DNA of 64,000 bases, from assembly GCA_041744215.1 (NCBI GenBank), contig JBGTLG010000041.1, forward strand, positions 32,001 through 96,000, read 5' to 3'. This document shows, in pieces, positions 1,663 through 31,505 of this stretch. The stretch comes from Fimbriimonadales bacterium. GTDB lineage: Bacteria; Armatimonadota; Fimbriimonadia; Fimbriimonadales; ATM1. The translations under genes were made by a program, and so were the position numbers. The notes beneath the pieces are model-generated. The model did no database searches and had not been told where the DNA came from. It saw only the letters and a list, made by a program, of their open reading frames with translations. How positions within the stretch are numbered: the first letter of the stretch is position 1; each line of letters opens with the position of its first letter.

Positions 1663-2760
1663 TCAGTACTTGTGTGCAGGATGTGCTCCGATCAAGTACT
1701 GGAACTGAAATGTTAGAACGTTGCGAGGATCGTCGAAGTTACTGGTGATTCGTTGGAACTCCAGCCTGAGGACTTGGAACTCAGTCAGCTTGTAACTGAC
1801 ATTTGCGCCCCAAGCTTGTCTAAGATCAGACGTCCCAGGCATCTCGCTGTAATCGTATCTCGCCGTGATAAAGGTACGCGGCGCGACCTCATACGTGAAA
1901 GCGGCAAATGCTCCGAACGTCGAACTGAAGCCTGCTTCGTTCGAGTTGGCCCAGTAGGCCTCAGTTTCGAGCACCGCTGATCGGCCCTTCTGGCCTGGCT
2001 GCCACTTCATCGTGTAGTCAAGGCCGACCACCGTCGCCCGGTCTTCGTCCCTCGGCCCGAAAAGAAGCGAGCCACCTAGTTGAGCGGACATATCCTCGCT
2101 AAAGTCGAAAAAGGTCCGCAGTCGCGCGATTCCAACCGGCTTGTCGAGAGTTGAGTGGTCGAACAACGGCCCGTCTTCCGCCTGAACCGCCTCGAGAGAG
2201 AGCTCAAGGAACTGCTGCCCTGGGAACAGGTAGGAAACGTGGACGCCTGGTGCCCGGAGCCCGTGCTCGCCAAAGAGGTCTTGGATCACAAACGGGTAGT
2301 CGAGGAAGTTCAATTGATCGATGTGATTCCGCTGCAGCCTTCCCACCGCGCCTGCGAACTTGCCCATTTTGACTTGCCAGCCGCCACCGAGCCTGTTATA
2401 AACCGCGAAGGCCTCCTCGATTTCGATTTCATACTCGGCGTGATCTTCGCCCTTGCCTTTACCCTGCTTCTTATGTCCGTGATCATCGGTATGCTGATGG
2501 ATACCGATGTAGGCTTCGGCCCTGAGGAACGGATCTACGTCGGCAGCGAACCCAAGCTCAAGTTCGTTCAGATTCCAGACCTTCTCTCCATGATTGTCAA
2601 CCAGAATTCCCCTGAAGTCGGTTACCAGGGATATCTGCGGATTGAAGACGTTCTTGGCGGGGGTCGGCGGTTGTTCGTCTTGCAGTGCGAGCGGTGCCGT
2701 CGTGCCTGAGCCAAAGGCTACGGCCGCCGCTGCCGCGATGGATTGAATGGGTACGCCCAT
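1663..2760 (-). CDS. Putative outer-membrane beta-barrel protein with His-rich loop, first gene of the metal-uptake operon
   Basis: Signal peptide, alternating beta-strand pattern, HQHTDDHGHKK insert, C-terminal GAHPAHKY; SD AGGAGG upstream. Confidence 0.65.
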   Translation of the reverse strand: MGVPIQSIAAAAAVAFGSGTTAPLALQDEQPPTPAKNVFNPQISLVTDFRGILVDNHGEKVWNLNELELGFAADVDPFLRAEAYIGIHQHTDDHGHKKQGKGKGEDHAEYEIEIEEAFAVYNRLGGGWQVKMGKFAGAVGRLQRNHIDQLNFLDYPFVIQDLFGEHGLRAPGVHVSYLFPGQQFLELSLEAVQAEDGPLFDHSTLDKPVGIARLRTFFDFSEDMSAQLGGSLLFGPRDEDRATVVGLDYTMKWQPGQKGRSAVLETEAYWANSNEAGFSSTFGAFAAFTYEVAPRTFITARYDYSEMPGTSDLRQAWGANVSYKLTEFQVLRLEFQRITSNFDDPRNVLTFQFQYLIGAHPAHKY

Positions 2761-2787
2761 TTGGTTGATGTCCTCCTATCAGAAATT

Positions 2788-2856
2788 TATTGCAATGCTA
2801 TTGAATTAGCTGGAGGGCAGTATATCCCTACAAAGCCACAATAAGCAAGTTTGCTT
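2788..2856 (-). promoter_or_regulatory. sigma70-like promoter plus candidate metalloregulator operator
   Basis: Minus strand TTGCTT (2848-2843)-N18-TATACT (2824-2819); imperfect AT-rich palindrome TAATTCAATAGCATTGCAATA (2808-2788) between the -10 and the SD; second inverted repeat AAGCAA-GT-TTGCTT over the -35. Confidence 0.5.
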
Positions 2857-2867
2857 CAATAACGCGA

Positions 2868-3899
2868 TTAGCCGGAGATTTCGAAGACCACCTTCCCGGT
2901 CTTACCTTCCGCCATCAGCTCCATCGCGGCGTTGAAATCGCTGTAGGGAAATCGGTGGGTAATCACTGGAAGGATATCCAGCGTTCCCGCGGCAAGCATT
3001 CCGCCCATCTGGTCCCACGTCTCCCAGATCCTCCTCCCGACGATGCACTGGACGTCGAGCCCCTTGAAGATCGCGTCATTCAGGGCGACAGGCATTTTTG
3101 GCTCTGGGAACAGTCCGAGGAGGCTAACTCTGCCGCCTGGTCGAGTCGCCCTTATCGCGAGGTCGAGAGCGCTCGGATGCCCCGACATTTCGAGGGCTCC
3201 GTCAACGCCGCCGGGATAGGCTGCAGACAGAACCGCCTCAGCGTCGTCTTTCGTAGGGTCGATCACGAGATCCGCCCCCATTTTCCTCGCCATCTCCAGT
3301 CGATAATCGCTCACTTCAGTAACTGCCACCGAGTTCGCACCGAGAGCCCTGCAAACACCCACAGCAAACAACCCGATTGGGCCCATTCCTGTGATGAGAA
3401 TGTCTTGGCCAGTGACAGGTCCGGCCATTACAGAGTGCACGGCGTTGCCCAGCGGGTCCTGGACGCATGCGATGTCTAACGGAACTGAATCCGGAACCTT
3501 GCGTGCGTTTTGCCATGGGATTACCGCCCAGGGCGCGAATCCGCCATCGACGTCTACTCCCAAAATCCTTGTGTTTACGCAGACGTGACCTTGCCCGTTC
3601 ATACACTGCTTACACATGCCACAGACGATGTGAGACTCGCTCGCCACTACATCTCCTGGCTGTAGCTCGGTGACATCGTCCGCGACTTCCTCGACGATGC
3701 CGCTAAACTCGTGGCCGATGATTCGCGGCGGAAGGACGCGGGATGCAGCCCAAGTATCCCACGCGAAGATGTGGAGGTCAGTGCCGCAGACGCTGCCATA
3801 CTTCACGCGCATCCTAACATGGCCAGGCTTGAGTAACGGTTCCGGCACTTCGATGAAGTCAGCGCCTGGCTCTGCCCGCACCTTAACTATCGCTTTCAC
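2868..3899 (-). CDS. tdh: L-threonine 3-dehydrogenase
   Basis: Zn-dependent MDR motifs CGTDLHI, GHEFSG, ESHIVCGMCKQC, DPLGNAVH, GMGPIG, LEMSG. Confidence 0.9.
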   Translation of the reverse strand: MKAIVKVRAEPGADFIEVPEPLLKPGHVRMRVKYGSVCGTDLHIFAWDTWAASRVLPPRIIGHEFSGIVEEVADDVTELQPGDVVASESHIVCGMCKQCMNGQGHVCVNTRILGVDVDGGFAPWAVIPWQNARKVPDSVPLDIACVQDPLGNAVHSVMAGPVTGQDILITGMGPIGLFAVGVCRALGANSVAVTEVSDYRLEMARKMGADLVIDPTKDDAEAVLSAAYPGGVDGALEMSGHPSALDLAIRATRPGGRVSLLGLFPEPKMPVALNDAIFKGLDVQCIVGRRIWETWDQMGGMLAAGTLDILPVITHRFPYSDFNAAMELMAEGKTGKVVFEISG

Positions 3900-10307: not shown

Positions 10308-11495
10308 TCAACTCCCCTTTAACTTCGAATACAGCAGCGACGACATTCCGTGCGTTTGGACCATGCCAGTCATCGCATTTTGATCAAAGGAAGAATCGTC
10401 GAAACTCGCGTCCGCCTCTGAATACAAAGCCCACGGACTCTGCCTTCCGATCACCGTCATAGAGCCCTTGTACAGTTTCACGCGGACGATGCCTTCGACT
10501 CGCGATTGGATTTGCTGAGCGAACGCCATCAGATCTTCAAACAGAGGATCGCCCCAAAGCCCCTTGTAAACCAAATCGGCCCATTCGACATCTACCAGTT
10601 GCTTGAAGCGCCTTTCGTGCGGCGCGCAAACCAGCGATTCCAAAGCCTTGTGCGCCCCAATCAGCAGCACTGCTCCGGGACACTCGTAGTTCTCGCGTAC
10701 CTTCAGGCCGATCATTCGGTCTTCCATCATATCAATGCGACCCACTCCATTCGTACCGGCGATCTTGTTGCATTGCGAAATCAAATCCAAAGCATTCAGC
10801 TTTTTCCCATCGAGTGAAATCGGCTTGCCGCATTGAAAACCTATCTCGACGATTGTGGGTTGATCAGGGGCGCTTTCTGGCGCGAGAGTCCATTGGAAAA
10901 TCTCCTCTGGAGGTTCATGATTCGGGTCTTCGAGCTTTCCGCCCTCGATGCTCCGCCCCCACAGGTTTTCGTCGATCGACCAGATTTTGTTTTTCGATTG
11001 CGCGATCGGAGCGCCAACCTTTTCCGCGTACTCGATCTCTTCGCTTCGCGTCCAGTTTTTTTCACGGACAATCGCACGAATCTGGATGCCGGGCGCAAAC
11101 TGCCTTAGCCCGTATTCGATTCGGAACTGGTCGTTGCCTTTGCCGGTGCATCCATGAACGATGGCGTCGAAAGGCCCGTTTTCCTTCGCTATTCGCGCGG
11201 CCTCGAGTGCGATGAGCGGCCTCGCGATTGCCGTTGAGAGCGGATACCCATAGTAGTCGGCGTTGAATGCGATCGCTGGCATGCAGTAGTCGCTTGCGAA
11301 CGCCGCTTTCGCGTCCACAACGGTGTGCTTCGTTCCCATGAACTCTGCACGCTCAGTGGCCTGATCAATGTCCGCCGACGGCTGACCGACATCCACCGTC
11401 ACCGTATGGACTTCGTCGTAGCCCTCTTCTTTCAGAACCGGAACGCAGACGGTGGTATCGAGTCCACCGCTATAAACAACCAGAGCCTTCTTCAT
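10308..11495 (-). CDS. argG: Argininosuccinate synthase
   Basis: YSGGLDT, HGCTGKGNDQ.R, SIDENLWGRS.EGG. Confidence 0.95.
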   Translation of the reverse strand: MKKALVVYSGGLDTTVCVPVLKEEGYDEVHTVTVDVGQPSADIDQATERAEFMGTKHTVVDAKAAFASDYCMPAIAFNADYYGYPLSTAIARPLIALEAARIAKENGPFDAIVHGCTGKGNDQFRIEYGLRQFAPGIQIRAIVREKNWTRSEEIEYAEKVGAPIAQSKNKIWSIDENLWGRSIEGGKLEDPNHEPPEEIFQWTLAPESAPDQPTIVEIGFQCGKPISLDGKKLNALDLISQCNKIAGTNGVGRIDMMEDRMIGLKVRENYECPGAVLLIGAHKALESLVCAPHERRFKQLVDVEWADLVYKGLWGDPLFEDLMAFAQQIQSRVEGIVRVKLYKGSMTVIGRQSPWALYSEADASFDDSSFDQNAMTGMVQTHGMSSLLYSKLKGS

Positions 11496-12469
11496 TCAAA
11501 AACGCCATCCATGATCAGCTTCATCAGTGATTTTTGCGCATGGAGGCGGTTCTCTGCTTGATCGAATACAACGGATTGCTGGCCGTCGATCACTCCGTCG
11601 GTCACTTCCAGGCCGCGCCGTGCGGGGAGACAGTGGAGGAAGATCGCTTTACTATTCGCCAGAGACATCAACTTTTCATCGACCTGGTACTTTGCGAAGC
11701 GCGCTTTGCGCTCTTCCTCTTCGCTTTCTTGCCCCATGCTCACCCACACGTCGGTGTACACGGCGTCTGCACCGGTGACCGCAACCGTTGGGTCGTAGAC
11801 TTGCGAAACGTTAGCGTACGAGTAGCAGTGATCTGCCGCTTCGTACCCGGGCGGCGTGCAGATCGCAACTTCGTGTCCGAGCATCGCTGCCGTCACAGCG
11901 AAACTGTTTGCGACATTGTTCCCGTCACCGATGTAAACGAGTTTCTTGGGAGCAGTCCCCAGATGTTCTTCAACGGTCAGCAGATCAGCGAGCGCTTGGC
12001 ATGGATGATCAAGGTTGGTGAGCGCATTGATCACTGGGACGGTGGAATGCTTCGCGAGTTCAACCAGCGTCTCGTGGGAATTGAGGCGAGCGACGATCAT
12101 GGCGGACCACCTGCTCAGATTTTGCGCGACATCGGAGATGCTCTCGCGATTCCCCATGTCGATGTCGTTCTTGGTGAGATAGATCGCATGTCCACCGAGC
12201 TCCACCATCGCTGTTTCGAATGTGAAACGGGTGCGAAGCGACTGCTTTTCGAAAATCATCGCCAGGACGCGATTCTCTTGCCGGTGAACTTGCTTTGGCG
12301 CGAAATTGCGGTCGTACTTCAAGACTTTTGCCAGGTCAAGTACGAGACGCACTTGCGAAGGCGACAGGTCAGCGCTGGTTAAGACATGTTTCGGCGCGAT
12401 TTTTGGCAGCTCAACGCTGGCAACCGCAAAGAGCGGCTGTTGCTGCGAATACGATTGGAGTTGGTACAT
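11492..12469 (-). CDS. argF: Ornithine carbamoyltransferase (start set at ATG 12469 after SD AAGGA)
   Basis: FEKQSLRTR, HPCQALAD, GDGNNVA, YTDVWVSMG, HCLP, QAENR. Confidence 0.9.
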   Translation of the reverse strand: MYQLQSYSQQQPLFAVASVELPKIAPKHVLTSADLSPSQVRLVLDLAKVLKYDRNFAPKQVHRQENRVLAMIFEKQSLRTRFTFETAMVELGGHAIYLTKNDIDMGNRESISDVAQNLSRWSAMIVARLNSHETLVELAKHSTVPVINALTNLDHPCQALADLLTVEEHLGTAPKKLVYIGDGNNVANSFAVTAAMLGHEVAICTPPGYEAADHCYSYANVSQVYDPTVAVTGADAVYTDVWVSMGQESEEEERKARFAKYQVDEKLMSLANSKAIFLHCLPARRGLEVTDGVIDGQQSVVFDQAENRLHAQKSLMKLIMDGVFE

Positions 12470-12587
12470 TCTCTGAGTCCTTGCTTTGGGGGAAGCGGCG
12501 CGCGCCAGGCGCAAGACGGCGATTTGTCTTTTGCGGGGTTTCGCGGGATCTCGCGTGGCAGCGGCGACCTTCCTTAGGGCGAAACCC

Positions 12588-12686
12588 CTAAGCTCGGACT
12601 CGTCGGCCTCGGGTGGCCGGACGCGACGGCGCGCCGCGGAATCTTCCGCCGTTAGCGCTAACTAGTCCAAGTCCGGTGTTTGCCAC
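12588..12686 (-). CDS. Putative Arg-rich leader peptide (32 aa) of the argFGH operon
   Basis: GTG...TAG: MANTGLGLVSANGGRFRGAPSRPATRGRRVRA; 7 Arg codons, 4 of them CGA in the last 7 sense codons; begins just after TATAAT at 12706-12701. Confidence 0.6.
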   Translation of the reverse strand: MANTGLGLVSANGGRFRGAPSRPATRGRRVRA

Positions 12687-12700
12687 GAGAATGAAGTGTG

Positions 12701-12706
12701 ATTATA
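12701..12706 (-). promoter_or_regulatory. -10 element (TATAAT) of the arg operon leader
   Basis: Perfect TATAAT (GGGTATAAT) 14 nt upstream of the leader-peptide GTG. Confidence 0.6.
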
Positions 12707-18771: not shown

Positions 18772-18865
18772 GGGGCCGGCTGGGGGCTGGTGTCTCCTCT
18801 GGTCTTCAAAACCAGTGCGGCGTCGCAAGGCGCTGGGTGGGTTCGATTCCCACACGGTCCCGCCA
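18772..18865 (+). tRNA. selC: tRNA-Sec (anticodon TCA)
   Basis: Extended acceptor stem, 6-bp D-stem with 4-nt loop TGGT, anticodon loop CTTCAAA (TCA at 18806-18808), long variable arm, T-arm GTGGG-TTCGATT-CCCAC, G discriminator and encoded CCA. Confidence 0.95.
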
Positions 18866-19028: not shown

Positions 19029-19099
19029 GACAGAAAAGGGCAATCCCCCGTGCGGGGAGCGCAAAGCCACGGGCCGTGAGGCAAGCCGGGTTGCCTGTC
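19029..19099 (+). ncRNA. c-di-GMP-I (GEMM) riboswitch, compact variant
   Basis: P1 GACAG/CTGTC; GGGCAA...P2...GCGCAAAGCC.CGGG..P3..GCCGGGTTGCC follows the class I consensus; G at the Vc2 G20-equivalent position. Confidence 0.8.
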
Positions 19100-19422: not shown

Positions 19423-19515
19423 GCCTACTACCGGACAAGCGCGAATTTTCGAGGGCAACAGCCAGCTGGCTGTTGCCCTCGATTCCTTTGGTTTGATTCT
19501 CGGTAGACTTGACCT

Positions 19516-20836: not shown

Positions 20837-22045
20837 ATGGGCGCTGTGGCTTTTGTGGCGTTCGATGGCTTCTATGTAGCCGCCTATTCGAGGTCGCACC
20901 CCGAGGCCGGAAAGTCAATCGTGGTGCTAAAGGACCGGAGAGTCATCGACGCTTCGGCTGATACGCGGCGCCTGGGTGTCGGACCTGGGATGACAGCAGC
21001 CGAGGCCAAATACACAGCACGTGGCTTTGAGACTGCCCCGATCTTTGTCGAATATCGCAACGAAGACTTTTTGCCGTTCTCCGAGAGCTATTTGAAAGTC
21101 TGCGCAGAATACGCGTCGGCCGTCGAGCCAGTAGCGGAACATTGCGCTTTCTTGGACCTCGGGTTGCTTGCTGGAGCGCGCGAGGTTGCTTATGCGCTGG
21201 CGGCTGATTTGTATCACGCAGTAAAGGTGTGCGCCCGTATCGGGATCGCGGAATGCAAACTGGTCGCAAAGATTGCTGCGGAGCGCGCCGTGGGCGACGT
21301 AGAAATCGTTGCTGCACGGGGAGATGAGGCATACATTGCTCCCCTTCCAATCGAATCGCTTTGGCGTGTCGATCGCAACTGCCTATTGCGACTACGAAAT
21401 CTTGGGTATCGAACTGTCGGGGAGGTGGCAGCTTTTGATGCTGCACTTCTGCGAAAGCATTTTGGAGACGAAGGCTTTCGTATCTCACAACTTGCGAAAG
21501 GGATCGACAGATCTCGGATTGAGAGCATCTATCCGCCCGATGACATCCGTGCGCAGTTTCACTTTCCGCAACCCGCCAGACTGTCGAGCGAGATTGAACC
21601 TTCGATATTCGATCTTGCGCGCACACTATCGGAGGAACTATCAGCGCGATCGCGCATGGCGAGCATCATTGAACTCGCTGCTACATTTGAAGATAGCTCT
21701 ATGCGCTTGACGTGCAGAGAATTTGCAAAGCCCATGCATACCTACGGCGCACTGCTAACTGGATTGCGTTTAACATTGCGGAACATAAACATTGATGAAG
21801 AATTGGCTTCTCTGTCGGTGAAGCTGAATAAGGTCGTCGCACTCGACACACGGCAAATCTCGATGCCAGGGACCTCAGCTGATGCCGGCAGCAAGGACTT
21901 GATTCTAGAATCAGCAGAACGTACGGCAAAACAACTGCAAGAAACGTTTGGTGAGGAGTCTGTGTTGCGTGCAAGCAACCGATTTGTTGAGCGAAGAGAC
22001 TTGCTCTTGCGCGCGTGGAAGGAGGCAACATCTTGGAGCGATTGA
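20837..22045 (+). CDS. imuB: ImuB-like catalytically inactive Y-family polymerase
   Basis: DinB-like sequence with the catalytic D (HVDMD becomes FVAFD) and the SIDE motif (becomes AEHC) lost; upstream of dnaE2; start chosen 6 nt after the SD. Confidence 0.75.
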   Translation: MGAVAFVAFDGFYVAAYSRSHPEAGKSIVVLKDRRVIDASADTRRLGVGPGMTAAEAKYTARGFETAPIFVEYRNEDFLPFSESYLKVCAEYASAVEPVAEHCAFLDLGLLAGAREVAYALAADLYHAVKVCARIGIAECKLVAKIAAERAVGDVEIVAARGDEAYIAPLPIESLWRVDRNCLLRLRNLGYRTVGEVAAFDAALLRKHFGDEGFRISQLAKGIDRSRIESIYPPDDIRAQFHFPQPARLSSEIEPSIFDLARTLSEELSARSRMASIIELAATFEDSSMRLTCREFAKPMHTYGALLTGLRLTLRNINIDEELASLSVKLNKVVALDTRQISMPGTSADAGSKDLILESAERTAKQLQETFGEESVLRASNRFVERRDLLLRAWKEATSWSD

Positions 22046-25000
22046 TTGCAAGATGGCGAGAGACTGGCAGGTGGTGGGAGGGAGAGCCTGAGCGCGAGTT
22101 CGCTCGTTTTCTCGATAATGATAACATCGTCCGCGAGTCTGTCCGCGAGCACACTTGTGTCATTCAACCAAAAAGACTAATGGTTAAAGAGGATGTGACA
22201 TTTGAAGTTGCCCGCACTGTCGACTACGAAGTGATAAAACGCGAAACTCGTGATTCGCGATTAGAATTGGAAAGAATCAATACCCTAAAAGCTTTGCCAG
22301 GTTCATCGAGTTATGTTCCACTGCATTGCGTTTCGGCTTACTCATTTGGCAGGAGCTCGCTTACTCCTGAGCGCATCGTGGCGAAAGCATACTTAGGCGG
22401 CATGCAATCCGTTGCGATGGCAGACCGTTTTTCGCTTTCAGGATCACACGCTTTCTGCAGCGCTGCGCGCGACATAGGAATCAAACCAATCATAGGGGCG
22501 AGCATTGAAATGGAGAGCGGAGGCGAGCTGGTTTTGCTTGCTATGAGCGCAGATGGCTATATCAATCTGTCTCGCTTGATCACTCGATGTCATCTCGATG
22601 AGCCGCGCCAGCACCCACTTTGCAACTGGGATCGACTGGCGGAGTATTCAGATGGTTTAGTTTGCCTGACAGGCGGGCATTACGGGCCCATAAATATTGC
22701 CCTTATCGGCAGGCAGCGACCAGCCGCACGCGATGCAATCCTACGCTTAAGAAAGATTTTTGGCACTGAAAGGCTTTATGTCGAAATTGAACGGTCTATG
22801 GCGCATTGGGAGCTGTCAGTCAACATCGCACTACTCGAGATAGCCAGCGACTTTGGCCTGCGCGCTATTGCCGGAGGAACGATCGCACACGAGCATAAGG
22901 ACACTTTCGCAGCACAAGATGCTCTCCTTTGCGCAGAGACACTCTGCACCGTTGAGGAAATCATTGGTCGAAAGCCACAGCGCCACGCAGACCAACCACC
23001 TATCAAGCCTCTCCCACTGCGTTGGATGAACGCCGAAAGACGGTTTCGCGATGGCAAAGAGTTTGAAGCGCTATTTCGAGATCACCCTGAATTGATCACA
23101 AACGCCAAGCAGATTGCCAGCGATGCGCCAGATTGGCCGCTACCAAATAGGCCGCCGTTTCCAAGCTTCGAAGACGCACCTGAATGCATTTTACGCAATG
23201 TTGTTTATGACGGCGCGGCACGAAGGTACTTTCACATGACTCCAAAGGTCCGCAAGCGGATTGACATGGAGTTGAAACGAATATGCGATTTGGGCTTTGC
23301 TAGCCATTTCCTAGCAATGTGGGAAGCCTGCAGATGGGCGAAGAGCCGTAGCATTTTGTATAGTGCACGAGGCTCGGTAGTCGATAGTGCAGCAGCATAT
23401 TGCCTTGGGCTGTCGCGCATTGATGCAATTGAGCACGACTTGCACTTCGACCGCTTTTTACCTGGGGACGGAAGCAAGCGACCGGACATTGACATTGATT
23501 TTGAAGCCAGTCGGCGAAATGACGTGCGTGAGTTTTTTGTGCGTCGCTACGGTCGCGAGCATGTGGCCGGCGTAGCAGCGATAGCAACGTATCAGGGCCG
23601 CGGAATCGTGCGTATGATTGGCAAGGCGATGATGCTTCCAGAAAGCGTCATCGATCTTCTTGCTAAGAGAATGCACGGTTCAGTTACAGGTAGGAATATC
23701 GAAGCTGCGCTGCTGACACGACCAGAACTAAGAGACAGTGGCATTCCGAAAGAGCGTTTTCTTCTGCTCTTTGAAATCGCGAGGCAGGTCGATGGTTTGC
23801 CAAGAGGAATCGCCGCGCACTCGTCTGGATTGGTTCTATCGTCCGTTCCCATTTGCGATACTGTTCCGGTCATGAATTCTGCACTCGGAGACGCGCCTAT
23901 CATACAATGGGACAAGTACTCTTCGAAGCACTACTTCGACAAGTTCGATATCTTGTGTCTAAGGGGGCAAGATGTTCTTGCTGGAACGCAGCAGCGAGTA
24001 CGCCTTAACTCCGGAGCCGACCTAAACGTTGAGCGCATACCATTAGATGACGAGATGACGTTCGAAGCTTTTCGCCAAGGCAATCTCATCGGAATTCCCC
24101 AAAGCGCGTCACCTGCCATGCGTCAAGCTCACATGCGATTGCGCACGCGCAATCTGCACGATGCGAGTTTAGTGCAGGCTGGGATTCGCCCAGGAGTAGG
24201 CGGAGCAGTGAAGATCAATGCGCTGATTCGCAGACGCAGAGGATTGGAGAATTACGCATATCCTCATCCTTTATTGGAAGAAATACTTGGGATGAGCTAT
24301 GGGATTATAGTGTTTCAGGAGCAAGTTGACCAGTTATTACAGGGATTCGCGGGATACACGTCAGGTGAGGCGGAGGAGATACGTGAGAAGATCCATAAGC
24401 TTCGCGCGAACGATTGGGGAGACACAATTCACGATGTTCTCATTGAAAGAATTCTCAGTCGTGGATTCTCCAACGAAGTCGCGGAGCACGTTTTTGATTT
24501 AGTCTCAGGTTTTCGCGGCTATGGCTTTGCGCAAGGACACGCACTATCGTTTGCGGAGATATCAATTCGTTGCACTTATCTACAAAACAACTACCCGTCT
24601 GAATACTTTGCCTCGTTGCTAACTTCTCAGCCAGCAGGATACTACGGACCAGGAACGATCGCCAATGAAGCACGCATTCGTGGCGTAAGAATATTGCCGA
24701 TCGATATCAATAGCAGTGATGAGATCTTTACTGCCAGCGACCGTGCAATACGCGTGGGACTGATGCAACTGCACGGCCTTTCCGCTCCAACAGCCCAGCG
24801 CATCGCAGGCAATCGCCCCTATCGATCGATCTTTGATTTTTGTGCGCGCGCCAAACCGAATGCTGAAGAACTTGAGTTTCTGATATTGTCTGGAGCTTTC
24901 GATACCCTGCACTCGAATCGCCGTGCGCTTTTATGGGTACTTCCTGAAGCGATCAAACTTGCACATGTTTCGACACCTGGCAATGTGCTCTTCGAGGATG

Positions 25001-25500
25001 AGCCAGTGGGCGTTGTTCCAGAAAATATATCCGACTTTTCGGCTTATGAAAAAGCCGTACTTGAGCGGGCAATGCTCGGCATGGACATTAAAGAGCACCT
25101 CATGTCATTCGAGCGCGATCGCATCAGAGGGAAAGGCGGTATCACTTGTGCTGACGCTGCCGTTCTTATGCCAGGAAAGAAAGTTGTCGTTTGCGGGCTG
25201 GCCATGCGGCTTAGATTTCCACCAACGGCGTCTGGACGGCGTGTCGTGTTTTTCGATTTAGAAGATGAAACCTCGCTGTTGAACGTTACATGCTTTGATG
25301 AAACTTATCAGCGCGACGGCCACGCAATCATATGCTCCCCATTTGTTACCCTGATCGGAACTAGTCAAGAACGTGACGGGCACCCCGCATTCTTAGCGCA
25401 CCGTGTTTTCCCTTATCGACTTAGCGCAGAGGCAGCCACCTTCGCCCAAGAGAGGCGGGCTGTGCATGCCGAAGATTTCATCATCAGAAAGGGGAGGTAG
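22033..25500 (+). CDS. dnaE2: Error-prone DNA polymerase III alpha subunit (DnaE2) with N-terminal extension
   Basis: PHP domain (LHCVSAYSF), ARGS, RPDIDIDF, YGFAQGHA, SQPAGYY, OB fold; TTG start after SD AAGGAGG, overlapping the end of imuB. Confidence 0.88.
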   Translation: MERLIARWRETGRWWEGEPEREFARFLDNDNIVRESVREHTCVIQPKRLMVKEDVTFEVARTVDYEVIKRETRDSRLELERINTLKALPGSSSYVPLHCVSAYSFGRSSLTPERIVAKAYLGGMQSVAMADRFSLSGSHAFCSAARDIGIKPIIGASIEMESGGELVLLAMSADGYINLSRLITRCHLDEPRQHPLCNWDRLAEYSDGLVCLTGGHYGPINIALIGRQRPAARDAILRLRKIFGTERLYVEIERSMAHWELSVNIALLEIASDFGLRAIAGGTIAHEHKDTFAAQDALLCAETLCTVEEIIGRKPQRHADQPPIKPLPLRWMNAERRFRDGKEFEALFRDHPELITNAKQIASDAPDWPLPNRPPFPSFEDAPECILRNVVYDGAARRYFHMTPKVRKRIDMELKRICDLGFASHFLAMWEACRWAKSRSILYSARGSVVDSAAAYCLGLSRIDAIEHDLHFDRFLPGDGSKRPDIDIDFEASRRNDVREFFVRRYGREHVAGVAAIATYQGRGIVRMIGKAMMLPESVIDLLAKRMHGSVTGRNIEAALLTRPELRDSGIPKERFLLLFEIARQVDGLPRGIAAHSSGLVLSSVPICDTVPVMNSALGDAPIIQWDKYSSKHYFDKFDILCLRGQDVLAGTQQRVRLNSGADLNVERIPLDDEMTFEAFRQGNLIGIPQSASPAMRQAHMRLRTRNLHDASLVQAGIRPGVGGAVKINALIRRRRGLENYAYPHPLLEEILGMSYGIIVFQEQVDQLLQGFAGYTSGEAEEIREKIHKLRANDWGDTIHDVLIERILSRGFSNEVAEHVFDLVSGFRGYGFAQGHALSFAEISIRCTYLQNNYPSEYFASLLTSQPAGYYGPGTIANEARIRGVRILPIDINSSDEIFTASDRAIRVGLMQLHGLSAPTAQRIAGNRPYRSIFDFCARAKPNAEELEFLILSGAFDTLHSNRRALLWVLPEAIKLAHVSTPGNVLFEDEPVGVVPENISDFSAYEKAVLERAMLGMDIKEHLMSFERDRIRGKGGITCADAAVLMPGKKVVVCGLAMRLRFPPTASGRRVVFFDLEDETSLLNVTCFDETYQRDGHAIICSPFVTLIGTSQERDGHPAFLAHRVFPYRLSAEAATFAQERRAVHAEDFIIRKGR

Positions 25501-25509
25501 AATGCCATA

Positions 25510-26001
25510 GTGGCCCACGCGGTCGCGCGCAACATGACAACAGAAGCCCCAAAGCAGATGGTCCACTACCTAACCGTTCAAGACATCCTCTGGATCAACC
25601 AAGAGGTGACCAATGAGGCCCAGCCTTTTAAGTACGCACAATTGGAAGAGGGCACCAACTTTCAGTATGGGTACGGAAAGAGCGAAAACGTACTCGCACA
25701 GGCAGGACAATTCATTCAGGGCTTCATAAGGCTTCGACCGTTCAAGGCAGGCAACCGCGCAACGGCGTTTATCGCGGTCCTCGCGTTCCTTAAGATCAAC
25801 GGTTACGACATCACATTGCCGCCGAGCGATGCAACCCAGTGGGTGATGAATGTTGCGGACAAAAAGCAGGCTGGGAACGACGCAATCGCGCAAGTCGCTC
25901 AACGATCAGAAAAGCCAATCGAGATTAGTCCGACAGTGCGCACAGTTGTCAAGGAGCTAACCGAAGAATACGCGGACACCGTCGAAGCGTTGAGAGATTA
26001 A
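25510..26001 (+). CDS. Fic/Doc family protein with degenerate motif
   Basis: YLTVQDIL.IN N-terminus; RPFKAGNRATA in place of HPF.DGN.R. Confidence 0.7.
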   Translation: MAHAVARNMTTEAPKQMVHYLTVQDILWINQEVTNEAQPFKYAQLEEGTNFQYGYGKSENVLAQAGQFIQGFIRLRPFKAGNRATAFIAVLAFLKINGYDITLPPSDATQWVMNVADKKQAGNDAIAQVAQRSEKPIEISPTVRTVVKELTEEYADTVEALRD

Positions 26002-27275
26002 CTCTTCTTAGGACTGTACAACGGCCGCGCGAATCGACCTTTCCCTTTGGTCAGGTTGGTCAGCGCGCTACCGTCGCGTTGGACGGACCATACATCGCCT
26101 TCTCTCACGAAAACAAGCGACGAGCTGTCTGGCGACCAACTTGGTTCGAATGCTTCACCTGGCGCGATCGGACGCATCTCTCCGCCGCTCAATGGAGCAA
26201 TCATGAGACCCGCGCCCACCAGTTTCTCCTCTCGCCGCGAGAAAGCCGATACGATTAGATCCGCGCCGTCTGGCGAGATCGAGGGGAAGAGAAGCGCTTC
26301 CGTGCCGTCGATTGACTGAAACATCAACGCCGGCGGGCTGTTCGAACCGATCTCATAAAGAAAAAGAGCATTGACAAACGGTCGCCGAATCGCTCCGTCA
26401 GGATTTTTCATGTCGTCGGGAACAGCATCCAAGTTTGGCCATCGAAAGTCACGGACAGAGACCACTGCGACCGACTCCGTGGGGTGCATCGCGATCTCGA
26501 CATCTGCGCCCATCAGCGGTATGCGTGGCATCGCTTCCTGTTGCGATTCCGGTTTCAGGTTTTGGAGGACAAGGGCGCGTCCTCGTGGCGTATTGTAGAT
26601 GCCCATGAAGTGACTGCCATCGCGAGTCACGTATCCCTTTTCAAACGCGTCTCCCTCAAGCGCGCCGCTGACCTGCTGCCATGCCTGTTCCATCATGTGG
26701 GTCGCTTCATCGTGTCGATGTCCGTGTTCGTCGGTAGGTACGACTTCTTCGTCTGTGCGCTTGATTCCTGGTTCCTCTTTCGGGGGGTACACGGTCGATA
26801 TCTTAAGGGTCTGATAATCAAGCCGGAGCACGGATCCCCTACTCGTGAACACTATCGCGTTGCCCGAAAGTGCAAACCATGGAGCCCCCCGAGACGCCCC
26901 TGCGAGTGTCAGCTGAAAGGGGACGTTGTCTCGATCAGGAATCCAGTCGAAGAGTTGGTAGGAGCCGTCCGCCGAACGATTGCTCACGAAGATCACGCGC
27001 TGGCCGTCGGCAGACCATATCTGCTCACGATCGTCAAACTCCCCATCATCTCCGTCTGGCTCTCGAATCGTGCCGTCCGGCGAGATCGCCACTACTCGCG
27101 AAGTCCCATCGTCGTTGAGCGCAAGAGCGGCGATGAGGTTCGTGGTTTTCGGCGCAGGGATGATCACCCAAAGCCGTCCAGCGGGACGGTTGCGCATCCA
27201 AACGACCAACGAAACGACACCGATTACAACGAGAACCAGGATGCTGAACCCGACGAGTCTTCTTCTGCTTTGCAT
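25998..27275 (-). CDS. TolB-like/PD40 beta-propeller protein with N-terminal TM anchor
   Basis: WSADG, ISPDG and WSPDS repeats; start at MQSRRRLVG inferred. Confidence 0.75.
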   Translation of the reverse strand: MQSRRRLVGFSILVLVVIGVVSLVVWMRNRPAGRLWVIIPAPKTTNLIAALALNDDGTSRVVAISPDGTIREPDGDDGEFDDREQIWSADGQRVIFVSNRSADGSYQLFDWIPDRDNVPFQLTLAGASRGAPWFALSGNAIVFTSRGSVLRLDYQTLKISTVYPPKEEPGIKRTDEEVVPTDEHGHRHDEATHMMEQAWQQVSGALEGDAFEKGYVTRDGSHFMGIYNTPRGRALVLQNLKPESQQEAMPRIPLMGADVEIAMHPTESVAVVSVRDFRWPNLDAVPDDMKNPDGAIRRPFVNALFLYEIGSNSPPALMFQSIDGTEALLFPSISPDGADLIVSAFSRREEKLVGAGLMIAPLSGGEMRPIAPGEAFEPSWSPDSSSLVFVREGDVWSVQRDGSALTNLTKGKGRFARPLYSPKKS

Positions 27276-27337
27276 GGCTTGCCTTTGAGTTGCATACGTT
27301 ACCCGCGACGGTTCTGCGCCGCCGGTAGACTCTCGGC

Positions 27338-28609
27338 ATGAGCTTGTTCGAAACCGAGCCCTCCGCGGACAAGATGCCGCTTGCAGCTCGAATGCGGCCG
27401 GAGTCACTGAGCGACTTCGTTGGCCAACAGCATCTGCTAGGGGTGGACTCCCCAATCAGGCAAGCACTAGAGCGGGGAGCACTGGGGTCTGTCATCCTTT
27501 GGGGTCCGGCAGGGTCGGGCAAGACAACTCTTGCGCGGCTTATCGCGCAACAGGGACAAGCCCACCTCGAAGCGTTGAGCGCAGTAACTGCAGGTGTCGG
27601 TGAGATTCGCAAGGTTGCCGACGCGGCAAAGCATCGCAGCAAATCAACGATCCTGTTCTTGGACGAGATACACCACTTTACGCGTACCCAGCAAGACTTT
27701 CTGCTTGGATTAGTAGAAGAAGGCCGGCTGACACTGATAGGAGCGACAACGGAGAACCCCACATTCAGCTTGGCGACGCCCCTTCTTTCCCGGTGTCGAG
27801 TGCTGGTTCTAAAGCCTCTAGCGGATGGAGAGATCGGTGCGATCACCCAGCGAGGTGCGCGAGAACTCGGCGTCGAGATAACTGCTGAGGCCCTGTCTAC
27901 AGTCGCCCGATTCGCAAACGGTGACGCCCGCGTCGCGCTCAATGCCGTCGAGTTCGGGGCTCAACTCGCACACCCATCGAGTGAGATTGGCATTGAGCAT
28001 GTGTCTCAGGCGCTGAATCGACCGCTGGTCCGATACGATCAAAAGGGCGGTCAGCACTACGACGTGATCTCGGCGTTCATAAAATCAGTGCGCGGAAGCG
28101 ATGTTGATGCTGCCCTGCATTACCTAGCGCGCATGATCAGGGCGGGAGAAGATCCACGGTTCATCGCCCGACGGCTCGTGATCCTGGCCAGCGAGGACAT
28201 CGGCAATGCCGCGCCGATGGGTTTACTGATCGCGATGTCTGCATTCCACGCTGTTGAGCGAATTGGGATGCCCGAGTCGCGGATAGTGCTGGCTCAGGCG
28301 ACGATCTTCTTGGCCGCTTCGCCTAAGTCGAACAGCGCCTACCTGGCGATCGACAAAGCGCTCGCAGACCTGGATCGAGTTCCGGCGCCGCGCATACCGG
28401 ACTACTTACGTGATGCCAATACAAAGCGGCACGACGTGGTCGTCGATGAAACGGGCTACCTCTACCCCCACGACTCGGGTGGCTGGGCTCGGCAGGAGTA
28501 CCTCTCTTCGGGTCATGGCCTGCTGCTACCGTACTATGTCCCGCTATCGACCGGATTCGAATCGAAACTCGGGTCATTCTTGGAATCACTCGACGAGACA
28601 CAAAGCTAA
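27338..28609 (+). CDS. rarA: Replication-associated recombination protein A (MgsA/RarA AAA+ ATPase)
   Basis: PLAARMRP, GPAGSGKTT, DEIH, GATTENP, SAFIKSVRGSD, ASEDIG.A, SPKSN, YLYPHD. Confidence 0.93.
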   Translation: MSLFETEPSADKMPLAARMRPESLSDFVGQQHLLGVDSPIRQALERGALGSVILWGPAGSGKTTLARLIAQQGQAHLEALSAVTAGVGEIRKVADAAKHRSKSTILFLDEIHHFTRTQQDFLLGLVEEGRLTLIGATTENPTFSLATPLLSRCRVLVLKPLADGEIGAITQRGARELGVEITAEALSTVARFANGDARVALNAVEFGAQLAHPSSEIGIEHVSQALNRPLVRYDQKGGQHYDVISAFIKSVRGSDVDAALHYLARMIRAGEDPRFIARRLVILASEDIGNAAPMGLLIAMSAFHAVERIGMPESRIVLAQATIFLAASPKSNSAYLAIDKALADLDRVPAPRIPDYLRDANTKRHDVVVDETGYLYPHDSGGWARQEYLSSGHGLLLPYYVPLSTGFESKLGSFLESLDETQS

Positions 28610-28952
28610 TAGAGGCCTCAACCTAGACGGACTTCGATTCCGCCGAAGCGGTCTCAAGTTCCGTTCGTTCCGGTTAGACCGGTAAGAATCTCTCAACGCG
28701 AACCTCCGAGTTGCCTCGGGTGCTTGCGGCTTTGACGAGAGATGCTCAACTCTTTCGAGCAACGTCCCAGGCAGAAGCCTCTAGTAGAGACTGCCGCCAG
28801 CTGCCTTCGAAATTGGGCGAACCCTCTTTCCCTGGCTTCGATCCGACTTGCGTCGGAGAATCGGTCATCGCGTGCTGACTCGGTTGCCCGAGTCTGCGGC
28901 TTCAACGTGATTCCGACTCTTGCGAGCCTTCGATGGTCCGGCGGAAGCCTCT
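28610..28952 (-). ncRNA. Unidentified structured ncRNA made of two tandem homologous domains
   Basis: Eight hairpins: five GNRA-capped (GCAA x4, GAAA), two UUCG-capped, one UCUAA-capped; each ~170-nt domain closed by a long-range stem; shared linker motifs and compensatory changes between the domains; candidate -10 element at 28965-28958. Confidence 0.8.
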
Positions 28953-29030
28953 GACGGAAGTTATAACACAGAAATCGGCGAATTGTGCGATTTTTGACAA
29001 GAAAAACGGTGTATTTTCACTCTTGGAAGA

Positions 29031-29061
29031 CTTCCCACAAGTTATGCACATCTTATCAACA
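29031..29061 (+). promoter_or_regulatory. Three head-to-tail DnaA-box-like 9-mers
   Basis: CTTCCCACA (29031), TTATGCACA (29042), TTATCAACA (29053) with 2-bp spacers, versus consensus TTWTNCACA. Confidence 0.55.
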
Positions 29062-29091
29062 CTCTTTGAGCTTGGGTGCCAGTTAGTGAGG

Positions 29092-30765
29092 TCAGTCGGC
29101 TGGGTTGTGCCGGATGTACAGCGACTCCGCAATTTTTGCAACGATGTAGACCACCACGACATTGGCGGCGACTGCAAACATCGCAATGAAAGGCGGCCAG
29201 GCACCCAGGAACAACAGTGGAATCACGCCTAGCATAGCTGGAGTCAGTGCCAGAACCGAGCCGAGCATCTGGATAAGCGCACGAAAGCTCCGCTGGGTCG
29301 GATCGTCCATGTCCGGAAAGAGCAGCAGGACGGCAAGTTGAACAGCGGTCACGACGACCGCAATCGATGGGAGTCCAATCGCGCCAGCGAGAGCAAACTC
29401 GTAGGCTGATGGCCTTGCAAGAAGCAGCGTGAGCGCGGCTAAGAGAGAGATGAGTATGGGAACTAGGCTATGCGCGATGATTTCGATAAGGCAGATTGAA
29501 AGAGGTGAGAACGGCAGCGGCTTCTGCAAGTCGACCCTCCTCAGCATCTCAAGAAAGCCCGATTGACCAATACCAAGAGCGAACGAGCCTATCAGCAGGG
29601 CCTGGAGAGGCAGGACGACTCCGACGAAACGATCGCTCGCGTCCAGAACTGCGAGCAATGATATGCCGCATGTCATTACAACGAAGAGGATCGTAAACGA
29701 AACCTGTGTGCGCATCACAAAGAGCGTTTCCCGCCACAGCATTGCGAACGGGCCCACGACCTTCGACTCCTGCAGGAAGCGGAGTCTTCGAACTTTGAGC
29801 CGCCCTTCTCTCGCCGCCTGAACAAAAGCCAGCCCGAGGTCGCCAGACCTTTGAACCTCCTGCCTGCCAAGACTCGCGGCGCTATGGCGCGCTGCCATGT
29901 CGTACAGGTGATCCGCCTGCTTGAGAGCGATTCCAATCAGAGTGACAGATCCTATCAGTAGGAAGCCTGCGCCTACAAGTCCCGACGTCCAATTCGCGTA
30001 GATTGGCATGAGGGCGAACTCAGCTGCGGCCGCGGCCGGGTACAGGATCAATCGGGTGGCGTCGCTCGAAGCAAGTTCTACCAGGAACTTAACCGTATCC
30101 TCCTGCCGAAATGCAGCAACGATCACGGCACCAAAAGCGAGTCCAAACGCGACAAGCACCGACAAGGTCGCTTTGCGTGCCAATCGTGCGGCGGATGAAT
30201 CGCGATTGATGAACATACCCAACGCATAACTTAGCGCAACACCAAACAACGAGACCAGCAGAAACGCTCCTATCATTGTCTTTCCGACCATGGGAGCGTG
30301 GGCGGGATCTGGCAGGTTCTCGAAGAGAAGACTGATTCCTTCGGCGCTTCTTCGGCCGCCGAAGATAAGAATGATGACCGGAACGAAGAGTGTGACCATG
30401 TAGTCGATGACAAATCGATGAGCCATGACGAGACGCGGAGAGATTGGTGTAGGAAACAGTACGTCTGAGTCAGCTTGCCGATAGGTTCCAGGCGGACGGA
30501 ACACGCCAAGGATGCGAAAAACAAGGACGAGCGCAAAAACAAGCAAAAACAGCGCAAAGACGAATTCGATCCCAGGAAGGGACAACTTCGGCATCCCGTT
30601 CGGGATCGGCTGGGGGCGCCGACCCTCGAACAGATTGCCGACGAACATCATAAACCACCAACCGATGATGAGAACTGCGCCGATCAACCGTGTTGGCGAG
30701 CGCAGCGCTCGCCTGAACGAGTTGATGACTGTTCGGGCTGTTAAGTGAACAAGCGGTTGCATCAA
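29092..30765 (-). CDS. Putative ABC exporter permease
   Basis: Many TM segments; overlaps the stop of the ABC ATPase gene. Confidence 0.75.
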   Translation of the reverse strand: MMQPLVHLTARTVINSFRRALRSPTRLIGAVLIIGWWFMMFVGNLFEGRRPQPIPNGMPKLSLPGIEFVFALFLLVFALVLVFRILGVFRPPGTYRQADSDVLFPTPISPRLVMAHRFVIDYMVTLFVPVIILIFGGRRSAEGISLLFENLPDPAHAPMVGKTMIGAFLLVSLFGVALSYALGMFINRDSSAARLARKATLSVLVAFGLAFGAVIVAAFRQEDTVKFLVELASSDATRLILYPAAAAAEFALMPIYANWTSGLVGAGFLLIGSVTLIGIALKQADHLYDMAARHSAASLGRQEVQRSGDLGLAFVQAAREGRLKVRRLRFLQESKVVGPFAMLWRETLFVMRTQVSFTILFVVMTCGISLLAVLDASDRFVGVVLPLQALLIGSFALGIGQSGFLEMLRRVDLQKPLPFSPLSICLIEIIAHSLVPILISLLAALTLLLARPSAYEFALAGAIGLPSIAVVVTAVQLAVLLLFPDMDDPTQRSFRALIQMLGSVLALTPAMLGVIPLLFLGAWPPFIAMFAVAANVVVVYIVAKIAESLYIRHNPAD

Positions 30766-31505
30766 GATTCTGACGCCGCGACTTCAGGCTCCTCCGTGAG
30801 CTTGAGAAACACTTGCTCGAGAGTCGCTCCATCCATGTTCGCACTTTCGCGCAATTGTGTTATCGTTCCTTCGGCCACGACATGCCCGCGCGAGAGAATC
30901 ACGACACGGTCACAGAACTTTTCGGCGGTATCCAGGAGGTGGGTGCTGATCAGAATCGCCGCCCCATCGTCGCGTGCTCGGGATAGCTCCTGTTTGAATT
31001 CATGTGCTCCCCGTGGGTCAATCCCGATGAGCGGCTCGTCCAAGAGCAAAACGTTTGCACGATGCACCAACGCACACGCAACCGCAAGCTTCTGCTTCAT
31101 TCCCTTGCTTAGCGTGGCAACAAACTGGTCCCGCTTTTCATAGAGATCGTATCGCTTCAGCAGTTCGTTCCCGAGTCGGTCGTACTCGTCTAAGGAGTCA
31201 AAGCACATTGCTATGAAGCGCAAGTGCTCGCGGACGGTAAGCAGCTCATACAGCGAAGGAACTTCTGGCACAAAGGCGAGTCCCGATTTTGCCTGGGCTT
31301 GGTCGAGCAGCAGGTCATGGCCGTTGATGAGAATGGCCCCTCCTGTAGGGCGCAGGATTCCCGCAATACATCGCATCGCAGTCGTTTTGCCTGCACCGTT
31401 TGGGCCAAGGAGTCCTACAATTTCCCCAGGTCGTGCTTCAAACGAGATCCCGGAGACTGCGCGGAAGCCGCGATAGTCTTTGACCAATCCGATGACTTCA
31501 AGCAT
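30762..31505 (-). CDS. ABC transporter ATP-binding protein
   Basis: GPNGAGKTT, LSKGMKQK, LLLDEP, STH. Confidence 0.93.
   Translation of the reverse strand: MLEVIGLVKDYRGFRAVSGISFEARPGEIVGLLGPNGAGKTTAMRCIAGILRPTGGAILINGHDLLLDQAQAKSGLAFVPEVPSLYELLTVREHLRFIAMCFDSLDEYDRLGNELLKRYDLYEKRDQFVATLSKGMKQKLAVACALVHRANVLLLDEPLIGIDPRGAHEFKQELSRARDDGAAILISTHLLDTAEKFCDRVVILSRGHVVAEGTITQLRESANMDGATLEQVFLKLTEEPEVAASES

Follow-up and report, generated by a model that had tools for sequence, protein, structure and literature searches.

A predicted tandem RNA of two homologous five-way-junction domains next to rarA in Fimbriimonadales

What is encoded in the gap between the rarA gene and a neighbouring ABC exporter operon of a Fimbriimonadales bacterium? 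The gap lies in a 64,000-nucleotide (nt) stretch of contig JBGTLG010000041.1 (GenBank assembly GCA_041744215.1, contig positions 32,001 to 96,000), which was analysed as a whole and is hereafter called the window. On the minus strand, between the rarA stop codon and the stop codon of an ABC permease gene, the gap holds an intergenic element of about 345 nt that a preliminary description, made from the sequence alone, had presented as a tandem of two homologous, covarying RNA domains. Comparison of this element with its homolog in L005, a Fimbriimonadales metagenome-assembled genome (MAG; record JAHCHL010000004.1), leads us to regard it as very probably a real structured RNA gene. It is also a credible candidate for a new RNA family, new in the sense that it has no apparent relative among the known RNA families. 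The element consists of the following parts (positions are those of the window).

28786..28952, minus strand: unit 1 (U1), 167 nt, a predicted five-way junction (hand-set structure, covariance-model match)
28610..28783, minus strand: unit 2 (U2), 174 nt, of the same architecture as U1 (minimum free energy (MFE) fold, covariance-model match)
28784..28785, minus strand: linker between U1 and U2, 2 nt (AC; AA in L005; sequence comparison)

Direct reading of the minus strand of 28610-28952 found all the sequence features that the preliminary description had listed, each where it had been placed. Both units open with AGAGGCUUC(C/U)GCC and both are closed by long stems. Inside these stems, the motifs come in the same order in the two units: a GCUC-GNRA-GAGU hairpin, then CGUYRAAGCCGCA...CGCGWUGA..GAUUCU arranged around a GCAA-capped hairpin whose stem is unlike between the units, then a CCG..CGG hairpin and, finally, a UUCG-capped arm. 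The structure of U1, with 53 base pairs, all of them standard pairs in the window copy, was set by hand; the helices of U2 are those of its MFE fold.

28952-28946/28792-28786, minus strand: U1 P1, 7 base pairs (bp)
28944-28938/28800-28794, minus strand: U1 P2 (hand-set structure)
28928-28915, minus strand: U1 Pa, hairpin with GCAA loop (hand-set structure)
28914-28857, minus strand: U1 Pb, long arm with GCAA loop (hand-set structure)
28856-28843, minus strand: U1 Pc, hairpin with GCAA loop (hand-set structure)
28836-28803, minus strand: U1 Pd, arm with UUCG loop (hand-set structure)
28783-28774/28619-28610, minus strand: U2 P1 (MFE fold)
28772-28767/28626-28621, minus strand: U2 P2 (MFE fold)
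28760-28749, minus strand: U2 Pa, hairpin with GAAA loop (MFE fold)
28748-28683, minus strand: U2 Pb, arm with GCAA loop (MFE fold)
28682-28670, minus strand: U2 Pc, hairpin with 5-nt loop (MFE fold)
28664-28627, minus strand: U2 Pd, arm with UUCG loop (MFE fold)

The closing stem formed by P1 and P2 comprises 14 pairs in U1, 16 in U2 of the window and 17 in U2 of L005. Pa is a short GCUC-GNRA-GAGY hairpin in each unit; Pb has four helical segments, is interrupted by two conserved bulges, one of 3 nt (NCG) and one that reads AGC, and ends in the GCAA cap; Pc is another short hairpin, and Pd is an arm with two internal loops under its UUCG cap. The parts that are nearly invariant between the paralogous units are the 5' strand of P1 (AGAGGC), Pa and both strands of Pb except for the distal stem. 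P2, the distal stem of Pb, Pc and Pd have diverged with their pairing retained.

Could such a resemblance, or such a fold, arise by chance? Two occurrences of the core pattern AAGCCGCA-N(12-42)-CGCGNTGA, 170 nt apart, are present in the 64-kb window, against an expectation of 0.02, and none of 100 shuffles yielded as many. The MFE of the 343 nt is -158.8 kcal/mol, compared with -124.5 +/- 6.4 for dinucleotide shuffles (z -5.35; 0/100 as good), and U1 and U2 appear as separate closed domains in the full-length MFE structure. A covariance model of U1 only (R1), built from no more than the two U1 orthologs of the window and L005, detects U2 in both genomes (window, 48.0 bits, E 3e-10; L005, 42.8 bits, E 5e-9). 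Window U1 itself scores 207.3 bits with R1, and a model of all four units (R2; two genomes with two paralogs each) gives 170.3 bits for window U1 and 165.2 bits for window U2. Given the pattern, the fold and the match to the U1 model, U1 and U2 therefore share both sequence and architecture. Their boundaries, 28952-28786 and 28783-28610, also stand as first drawn, with R1 alone placing U2 at 28782-28611.

The homolog in L005 came from a single scan of 185,579 species-representative genomes with the core pattern, which has 21 specified bases. Because the pattern is strict, homologs with a single change in it are missed; the known distribution is a lower bound. The scan returned 14 loci, where about 8 chance matches would be expected by our own estimate, and one of them, L005, is a real homolog. 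The other 13 were rejected as chance matches: they show no blastn similarity, R1 and R2 are silent at the site, and no capped hairpin lies between the pattern halves. L005 carries two pattern matches 169 nt apart and is 88.2% identical to the window over 357 nt by blastn. Gene order is also the same in the two genomes, and in the window it is as follows.

27338..28609, plus strand: rarA/MgsA-type AAA+ ATPase gene, convergent with the element (Pfam MgsA_C 2e-56, AAA_assoc_2, AAA)
29092..30765, minus strand: ABC_export-family permease gene, co-oriented with the element and upstream of it (Pfam ABC_export 6.5e-34)
30762-31505, minus strand: ABC_tran ATPase gene of the exporter operon (Pfam ABC_tran 2.4e-31)

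The permease gene is the last of the two genes of the exporter operon and is separated from U1 by a spacer of 139 nt. At the other end, the last base of U2 (28610) adjoins the stop of the convergent rarA open reading frame (ORF; 27338-28609), as had been noted; in L005, where an ABC_export ORF (133-1800), the element and convergent rarA (ORF 2290-3573, minus strand) follow one another in the same way, the rarA stop overlaps the last 3 nt of U2. The RarA proteins of the two genomes are 76.8% identical, the permeases 64.0%, and 4.2 kb of DNA around the element 67.4%. In a global alignment, the element is identical in 300 of 343 columns (87.5%), with 92.8% identity in U1 and 82.8% in U2, compared with 78/140 columns (56%) in the upstream spacer, 67% in the rarA coding sequence and 61% in the permease coding sequence. 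The island of high identity runs from a TATAAC box (28965, where the blastn match starts) to the last base of U2.

Do the substitutions that separate the copies respect the proposed helices? When the four units were aligned under the guidance of the model, standard pairs made up 96.2% of the 208 cells in the 53 pairs, a share that dropped to 32-42% on sliding the 3' partners by 1-3 columns, and changes on both sides were seen in 18 of the 53 pairs, against 0-4 after sliding; both counts are biased towards the structure, the alignment of n=4 units (two genomes with two paralogs each) having been fitted by a model with the hand-set structure. None of 500 column shuffles of this alignment reached any of the five observed pairing measures. 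Because an alignment fitted by the model favours the structure, a comparison limited to orthologs, which were aligned without reference to structure, was added. The U1 orthologs differ by 11 substitutions, six of them in paired columns, which touch five pairs (one double-compensatory, four of the wobble type). No pair is broken, compared with a mean of 2.2 when the substitutions are placed at random (1.4% of trials give none). The U2 orthologs differ by 25 substitutions, 18 in paired columns, and of the 14 pairs touched, four are double-compensatory, six carry single changes that keep the pair, three are paired in one genome only and one is unpaired in both. Two window U2 pairs are lost in L005, compared with 11.3 expected, and none of 2000 trials gave so low a number. 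In total, the orthologs show five compensatory pairs and two broken ones, against about 13 expected, a pattern that indicates purifying selection on the pairs of the element. Covariation within the tandem, asserted from the start, is thus seen both across the units and between the orthologs, and the homology of the domains is evident from the detection of U2 by the U1-only model.

The strand can be read from the same structure. Among its wobble cells, 21 are G.U, which would be C.A mismatches if the plus strand were the RNA, and three are A.C; the GNRA and UUCG loops are legible as such on the minus strand only. The excess of G.U together with the loops therefore identifies the minus strand as the RNA strand, in agreement with the original assignment.

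Two explanations that would do away with an RNA altogether, a DNA-level repeat of the REP or MITE type and a small protein gene, are effectively refuted by these comparisons. The inverted repeats that bound each unit (UAGAGGC...GCCUCUA) and the intergenic setting do suit a repeat, but the element has kept its location in two genomes of 67% identity and has changed less than the neighbouring genes, it is single-locus as far as could be judged, and the changes within its internal hairpins are compensatory and strand-specific. Neither the pattern nor R1 or R2 found any further copy in the 64-kb window, and a distant blastn search of plasmid and phage collections gave no match. The L005 record yielded one locus only in the genome scan, and the element therefore looks single-locus there. 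With just two adjacent units in the window, one locus in L005 and nothing in plasmids or phages, dispersal as a repeat, which the preliminary description had named as a finding that would undo it, is not what we see. A protein gene is suggested by one frame of L005 that is open across the whole element (a 175-aa ORF; L005 1839-2366, plus strand), of the sort that gene callers annotate as a hypothetical protein. However, no frame of the window copy contains fewer than two stops (the range is 2-4), a 1-nt indel inside U1 puts the orthologs out of frame with each other, and no Pfam domain is present. Given the stops in all frames and the indel, the element is therefore not coding. A test for an open, conserved frame was likewise negative, the 175-aa ORF of L005 having relatives only in near-identical genomes.

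The open frame proved useful in another way. Protein collections queried with the 175-aa translation returned pseudo-proteins that lie over the same element in other assemblies, none with a Pfam domain: one cluster, P0001-P0006, whose six members are near-identical and come from contigs of up to 186 kb in JGI/IMG and Logan, and a more distant one of 63 aa (P0007) from Logan, on six contigs. These "hypothetical proteins" are annotation artefacts, that is, gene-finder translations of the RNA element, and offer a way to locate further copies. As deduced from amino-acid differences rather than from DNA reads, P0001-P0006 imply changes at the second base of the GNRA loops (in Pa, GCAA becomes GAAA; in Pb and Pc, it becomes GUAA) and stem changes that keep pairing (U.G to C-G twice, U-A to U.G once); P0007, on the same footing, implies two substitutions in U1, C101 to U and G106 to A, which together would turn the closing pair of Pc from C-G into U-A. 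The element would then be present in at least three lineages, all mutually close. Nothing was added by searches with the window antisense ORF (no candidate) or with P0007 (only itself), and another HMMER match, P0008 (1611 aa, E 9e-4, in six short stretches), was set aside as a chance hit.

Is the element a known RNA? Searches with the 4227 covariance models of Rfam 15, at gathering thresholds and then at E<=10 with lax filters, argue that it is not. At the gathering thresholds, the whole window contains only a tRNA-Sec and a c-di-GMP-I aptamer, both outside the element. At E<=10, a chance match on the other strand and outside the element (sot0042, 9.8 bits against a threshold of 88) was all that appeared in 28500-29150 of the window, and another (sn3071, 16.8 bits against 40) was all that appeared in 1800-2450 of L005. 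The absence of diagnostic features of known families, noted earlier, thus extends to all 4227 Rfam families at E<=10 in both genomes. Searches of the literature, among it preprints of 2026 on the large-scale mapping of intergenic elements, turned up no description of the element, although the supplements of these preprints may list clusters.

The same searches bear on the possibility that the tandem is processed, by itself or by the host, into two RNAs of about 170 nt, through cleavage at the linker, whether ribozyme-catalysed or carried out by a host RNase for which the 7-bp P1 is the recognition site. Each unit is closed by its own P1, the linker is just 2 nt long, and P1 of U1 has a length of 7 bp. 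Still, no self-cleaving ribozyme family of Rfam (hammerhead, twister, pistol, hatchet, HDV-like, glmS) matches at E<=10 and no cleavage-site motif was identified, so that we consider such processing very improbable.

Among characterized RNAs, the closest in layout are tandem riboswitches of the glycine type, which likewise consist of two homologous head-to-tail domains, each with a P1 of its own, conserved cores and covarying outer stems. Glycine aptamers are three-way junctions of about 100 nt, compared with the five-way junctions of about 170 nt proposed here. The element also differs from the glycine riboswitch in matching neither the glycine family nor any other riboswitch family of Rfam at E<=10, and in lacking a co-oriented gene downstream and a recognizable expression platform. 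Tandem riboswitches are reviewed in PMC9481103. A single unit resembles the lysine riboswitch (L-box), a single domain of similar size on a five-way junction. The 5' end of the lysine riboswitch resembles AGAGGC. However, long and short arms follow one another in a different order, the other core motifs of the L-box are not apparent, and the element does not lie in a 5' untranslated region (UTR) and has no Rfam match at E<=10. OLE, GOLLD, ROOL and raiA, which are themselves among the Rfam families, are, like the element as we read it, stand-alone and intergenic RNAs with a complex fold of several hundred nt and strong covariation; the element differs in being smaller than most of them, in its internal tandem duplication and in being known so far from only three close Fimbriimonadales-like lineages.

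Where, then, does the transcript begin, and does it have a promoter of its own? Two boxes precede U1.

28984..28989, minus strand: -35-like box CGCACA (in L005, TGCACA), with 18 nt between it and the -10-like box; putative promoter role
28960..28965, minus strand: -10-like box TATAAC, 7 nt upstream of the P1 start; a TG lies one base ahead of it

TATAAC and the 7-nt gap to AGAGG are identical in the window and L005, and the -35-like box belongs to a block, GCACA.TT.GCC, that is aligned in both genomes amid an otherwise 56%-identical spacer. The extended -10-like element described earlier is indeed present (TGTGTTATAACTT, 28970-28958), but its status as a promoter did not carry over to the promoter scan, which returned no sigma-70-type site there; the scan demands T at position 6 of the -10 box, which in this case reads TATAAC. 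The start proposed at about 28952 is consistent with the position of TATAAC 7 nt upstream in both genomes and with the conserved -35-like box. These boxes lead us to infer that the element has a promoter of its own, from which transcription would begin at 28952 or at a neighbouring base. We consider separate transcription of the element fairly probable.

The competing possibility is that the element is the 3' UTR of the ABC exporter mRNA, where it might protect the message from 3' exonucleases, bring about termination or give rise to a 3'-UTR-derived RNA. In both genomes it has the orientation of the ABC_tran and ABC_export genes and follows them at a distance of 139 nt, and no terminator-like site occurs between the permease stop and U1. 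Against this, the spacer is only 56% identical and high identity starts exactly at TATAAC, as fits a separate start; the element is 87.5% identical compared with 61% nucleotide identity in the permease gene; and a simple stabiliser or terminator would need no two five-way junctions with near-invariant internal loops. We regard a 3'-UTR role as improbable.

Downstream of the element, no conserved co-oriented ORF exists: what comes next on that strand is antisense to rarA, and the 92-aa antisense ORFs that follow U2 in the window and in L005 show no blastp similarity to each other. The earlier judgement that a 5'-UTR riboswitch is unlikely accordingly holds, as the element is not located ahead of a co-oriented gene. 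A riboswitch-like role could be played in another manner, as a tandem sensor that governs an antisense RNA reaching into rarA. Under this scheme, closing of P1 and P2 of U2, together with the U-rich stretch that follows (7 U in 12 nt after U2 in both genomes, despite differing sequence), would end the transcript, and an open stem would let the antisense RNA proceed and lower rarA expression. The build of the units is aptamer-like, with a long closing stem round the junction, a near-invariant core and covarying outer arms. The promoter-like boxes, the convergence with rarA, with U2 ending 1 nt from the stop in the window and overlapping it by 3 nt in L005, and the U-rich stretch, 7 U in 12 nt in each genome, are all in keeping with such a scheme. 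There is also a precedent: as described in PMC4179725, aspocR (Rli39) of Listeria monocytogenes is an antisense RNA that is terminated early by a B12 riboswitch. At the level of sequence, the likeness consists in a structured RNA with promoter-like boxes that faces the 3' end of an oppositely oriented gene, where read-through would produce antisense RNA; aspocR, however, includes a known cobalamin sensor and a terminator, unlike the element, whose fold belongs to no known class and for which no terminator was detected.

A sensor of this kind would require a switch, and a possible one exists at the 5' end of each unit. The invariant 5' strand of P1 (AGAGGCUUC.GCC) is complementary to an invariant segment of Pb, CG.U.GAAGCCGC, and the helix between the two is possible in all four units, where it is the MFE structure of the first 59 nt. 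It does not, however, stand out from shuffles (z -0.3 to -1.2), and forming it within the full unit carries a penalty of 15-26 kcal/mol. Both of the L005 U2 substitutions that fall in the segment are neutral for P1, but for the alternative helix one is a gain and the other a loss. We did not adopt this helix as a switch; its possible meanings include an intermediate of folding, a switch and mere coincidence. In addition, no known aptamer class matches the element (Rfam, E<=10), the scan found no canonical terminator after U2, adjacency to rarA is seen in two syntenic genomes only, and no metabolic logic would join a small ligand to a replication-fork AAA+ ATPase. On balance, control of rarA by such a sensor seems unlikely, to about the same degree as the 3'-UTR role.

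The explanation that we prefer is a minus-strand gene for a non-coding RNA (ncRNA) of about 345 nt, which would start at about 28952 downstream of CGCACA-N18-TATAAC. Its two domains would have arisen by tandem duplication, and each would fold alone as a five-way junction. The 5' strand of P1, Pa and the internal loops of Pb would constitute the working surface, since these are the parts that are near-invariant between the paralogs, with P2, Pc and Pd drifting under compensation. As each transcript would then display two near-identical surfaces, two copies of one partner, either a dimeric protein or two ligand molecules, would be bound. The RNA would work in trans and on its own, for binding or as a scaffold, rather than as the leader of a downstream gene. 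Taken as a whole, a stand-alone ncRNA with two paralogous five-way-junction domains and two-site action in trans, this account strikes us as evenly poised between right and wrong; the function in particular, that of a two-site, trans-acting binding RNA, is put forward tentatively, being read from conservation. Bolder, and rather doubtful, is the idea that the element represents a new class of large ncRNA built as an intramolecular pseudo-dimer, whose near-invariant Pa/Pb cores could form either a cooperative two-site sensor (which could gate the antisense RNA of rarA) or a new catalytic or protein-organising fold.

Several results count against the preferred account. RNAalifold, applied to an alignment made from sequence only, missed P1 and chose the helix between the P1 5' strand and GAAGCCGC over it. 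The pairing counts of the four-unit alignment lean towards the structure that guided it, and the base changes in the further lineages are known through amino acids. No conserved pseudoknot, loop-loop contact or contact between the units was found; the only candidates were of 4 bp, mostly in invariant or already paired segments. A consensus scan of 28300-29300 found neither a sigma-70-type promoter nor an intrinsic terminator; the absence of such sites is uninformative because in 20 kb they occur at chance level (nine promoters against 9.5 +/- 3.4 in shuffles, 24 terminators against 19.2 +/- 4.4). The stretch from the permease stop to U1 showed no terminator either, so that transcripts of the exporter operon may read through. 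Finally, because only three close lineages are available, the association with rarA and the ABC exporter is inseparable from general synteny.

Complex RNA folds of several hundred nt under strong selection are rare in bacteria, and riboswitches, OLE, ROOL/GOLLD and raiA have led to new biochemistry or new structures; Armatimonadota is a phylum little studied for RNA. The present element is better conserved than the protein genes next to it, and its duplication keeps the same core twice. If transcribed, it would offer a compact target for probing, cryo-electron microscopy or crystallography and pull-downs, with the paralogous domains as built-in comparative data. If the new-class idea were true, its fold and recognition logic would be unrelated to those of any solved or catalogued RNA.

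Some observations concern the element itself. The hexamer UCGAAG occurs four times on its RNA strand (28933-28928, 28841-28836, 28810-28805 and 28637-28632, minus strand), each copy in a junction strand immediately 5' of a helix. From its density in the window (114 matches), 0.31 copies would be expected in the element, so that the observed number is about 13 times the expected one; L005 retains three of the four copies, exactly or as CGAAG. Readings of the Pb loops and of the UCGAAG junctions as K-turns, T-loops or tetraloop receptors were considered by eye, and none fitted its usual consensus.

A possible third, diverged unit at 12554-12687 (minus strand) was rejected: its score fell from 16.6 bits with R1 to 11.4 bits (E 0.3) with R2, and its fold has a z of -1.5. 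The surrounding segment, 12515-12705 (minus strand), is an intergenic leader that follows a GGGTATAAT box, contains a UUCG-capped arm and matches nothing in Rfam at E<=10. It lies upstream of a carbamoyltransferase gene of the aspartate/ornithine type (11492-12514; Pfam OTCace). This leader is probably unrelated to the tandem RNA and could be a leader in its own right.

Elsewhere in the window, a PD40/beta-propeller ORF (25998-27455, minus strand) overlaps the start of the divergent rarA gene by 118 nt, and its TTG start is probably over-extended. On the plus strand, at 22015-26001, a dnaE-type gene for the DNA polymerase III alpha subunit (1161 aa) is followed 10 nt later by an ORF of 163 aa with a weak Pfam match to the Fic/DOC domain (25.5 bits against a cut-off of 24). 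The tRNA-Sec (Rfam, 78.4 bits) occupies 18772-18861 (plus strand), and the c-di-GMP-I aptamer, at 37.3 bits against a gathering threshold of 35, lies about 170 nt downstream of it (19029-19098, plus strand). A few hundred bases further downstream, at 19451-19480 (both strands), is a perfect, loopless palindrome of 30 nt, GAGGGCAACAGCCAG/CUGGCUGUUGCCCUC, which gives a stem-only match of 18.7 bits to R1.

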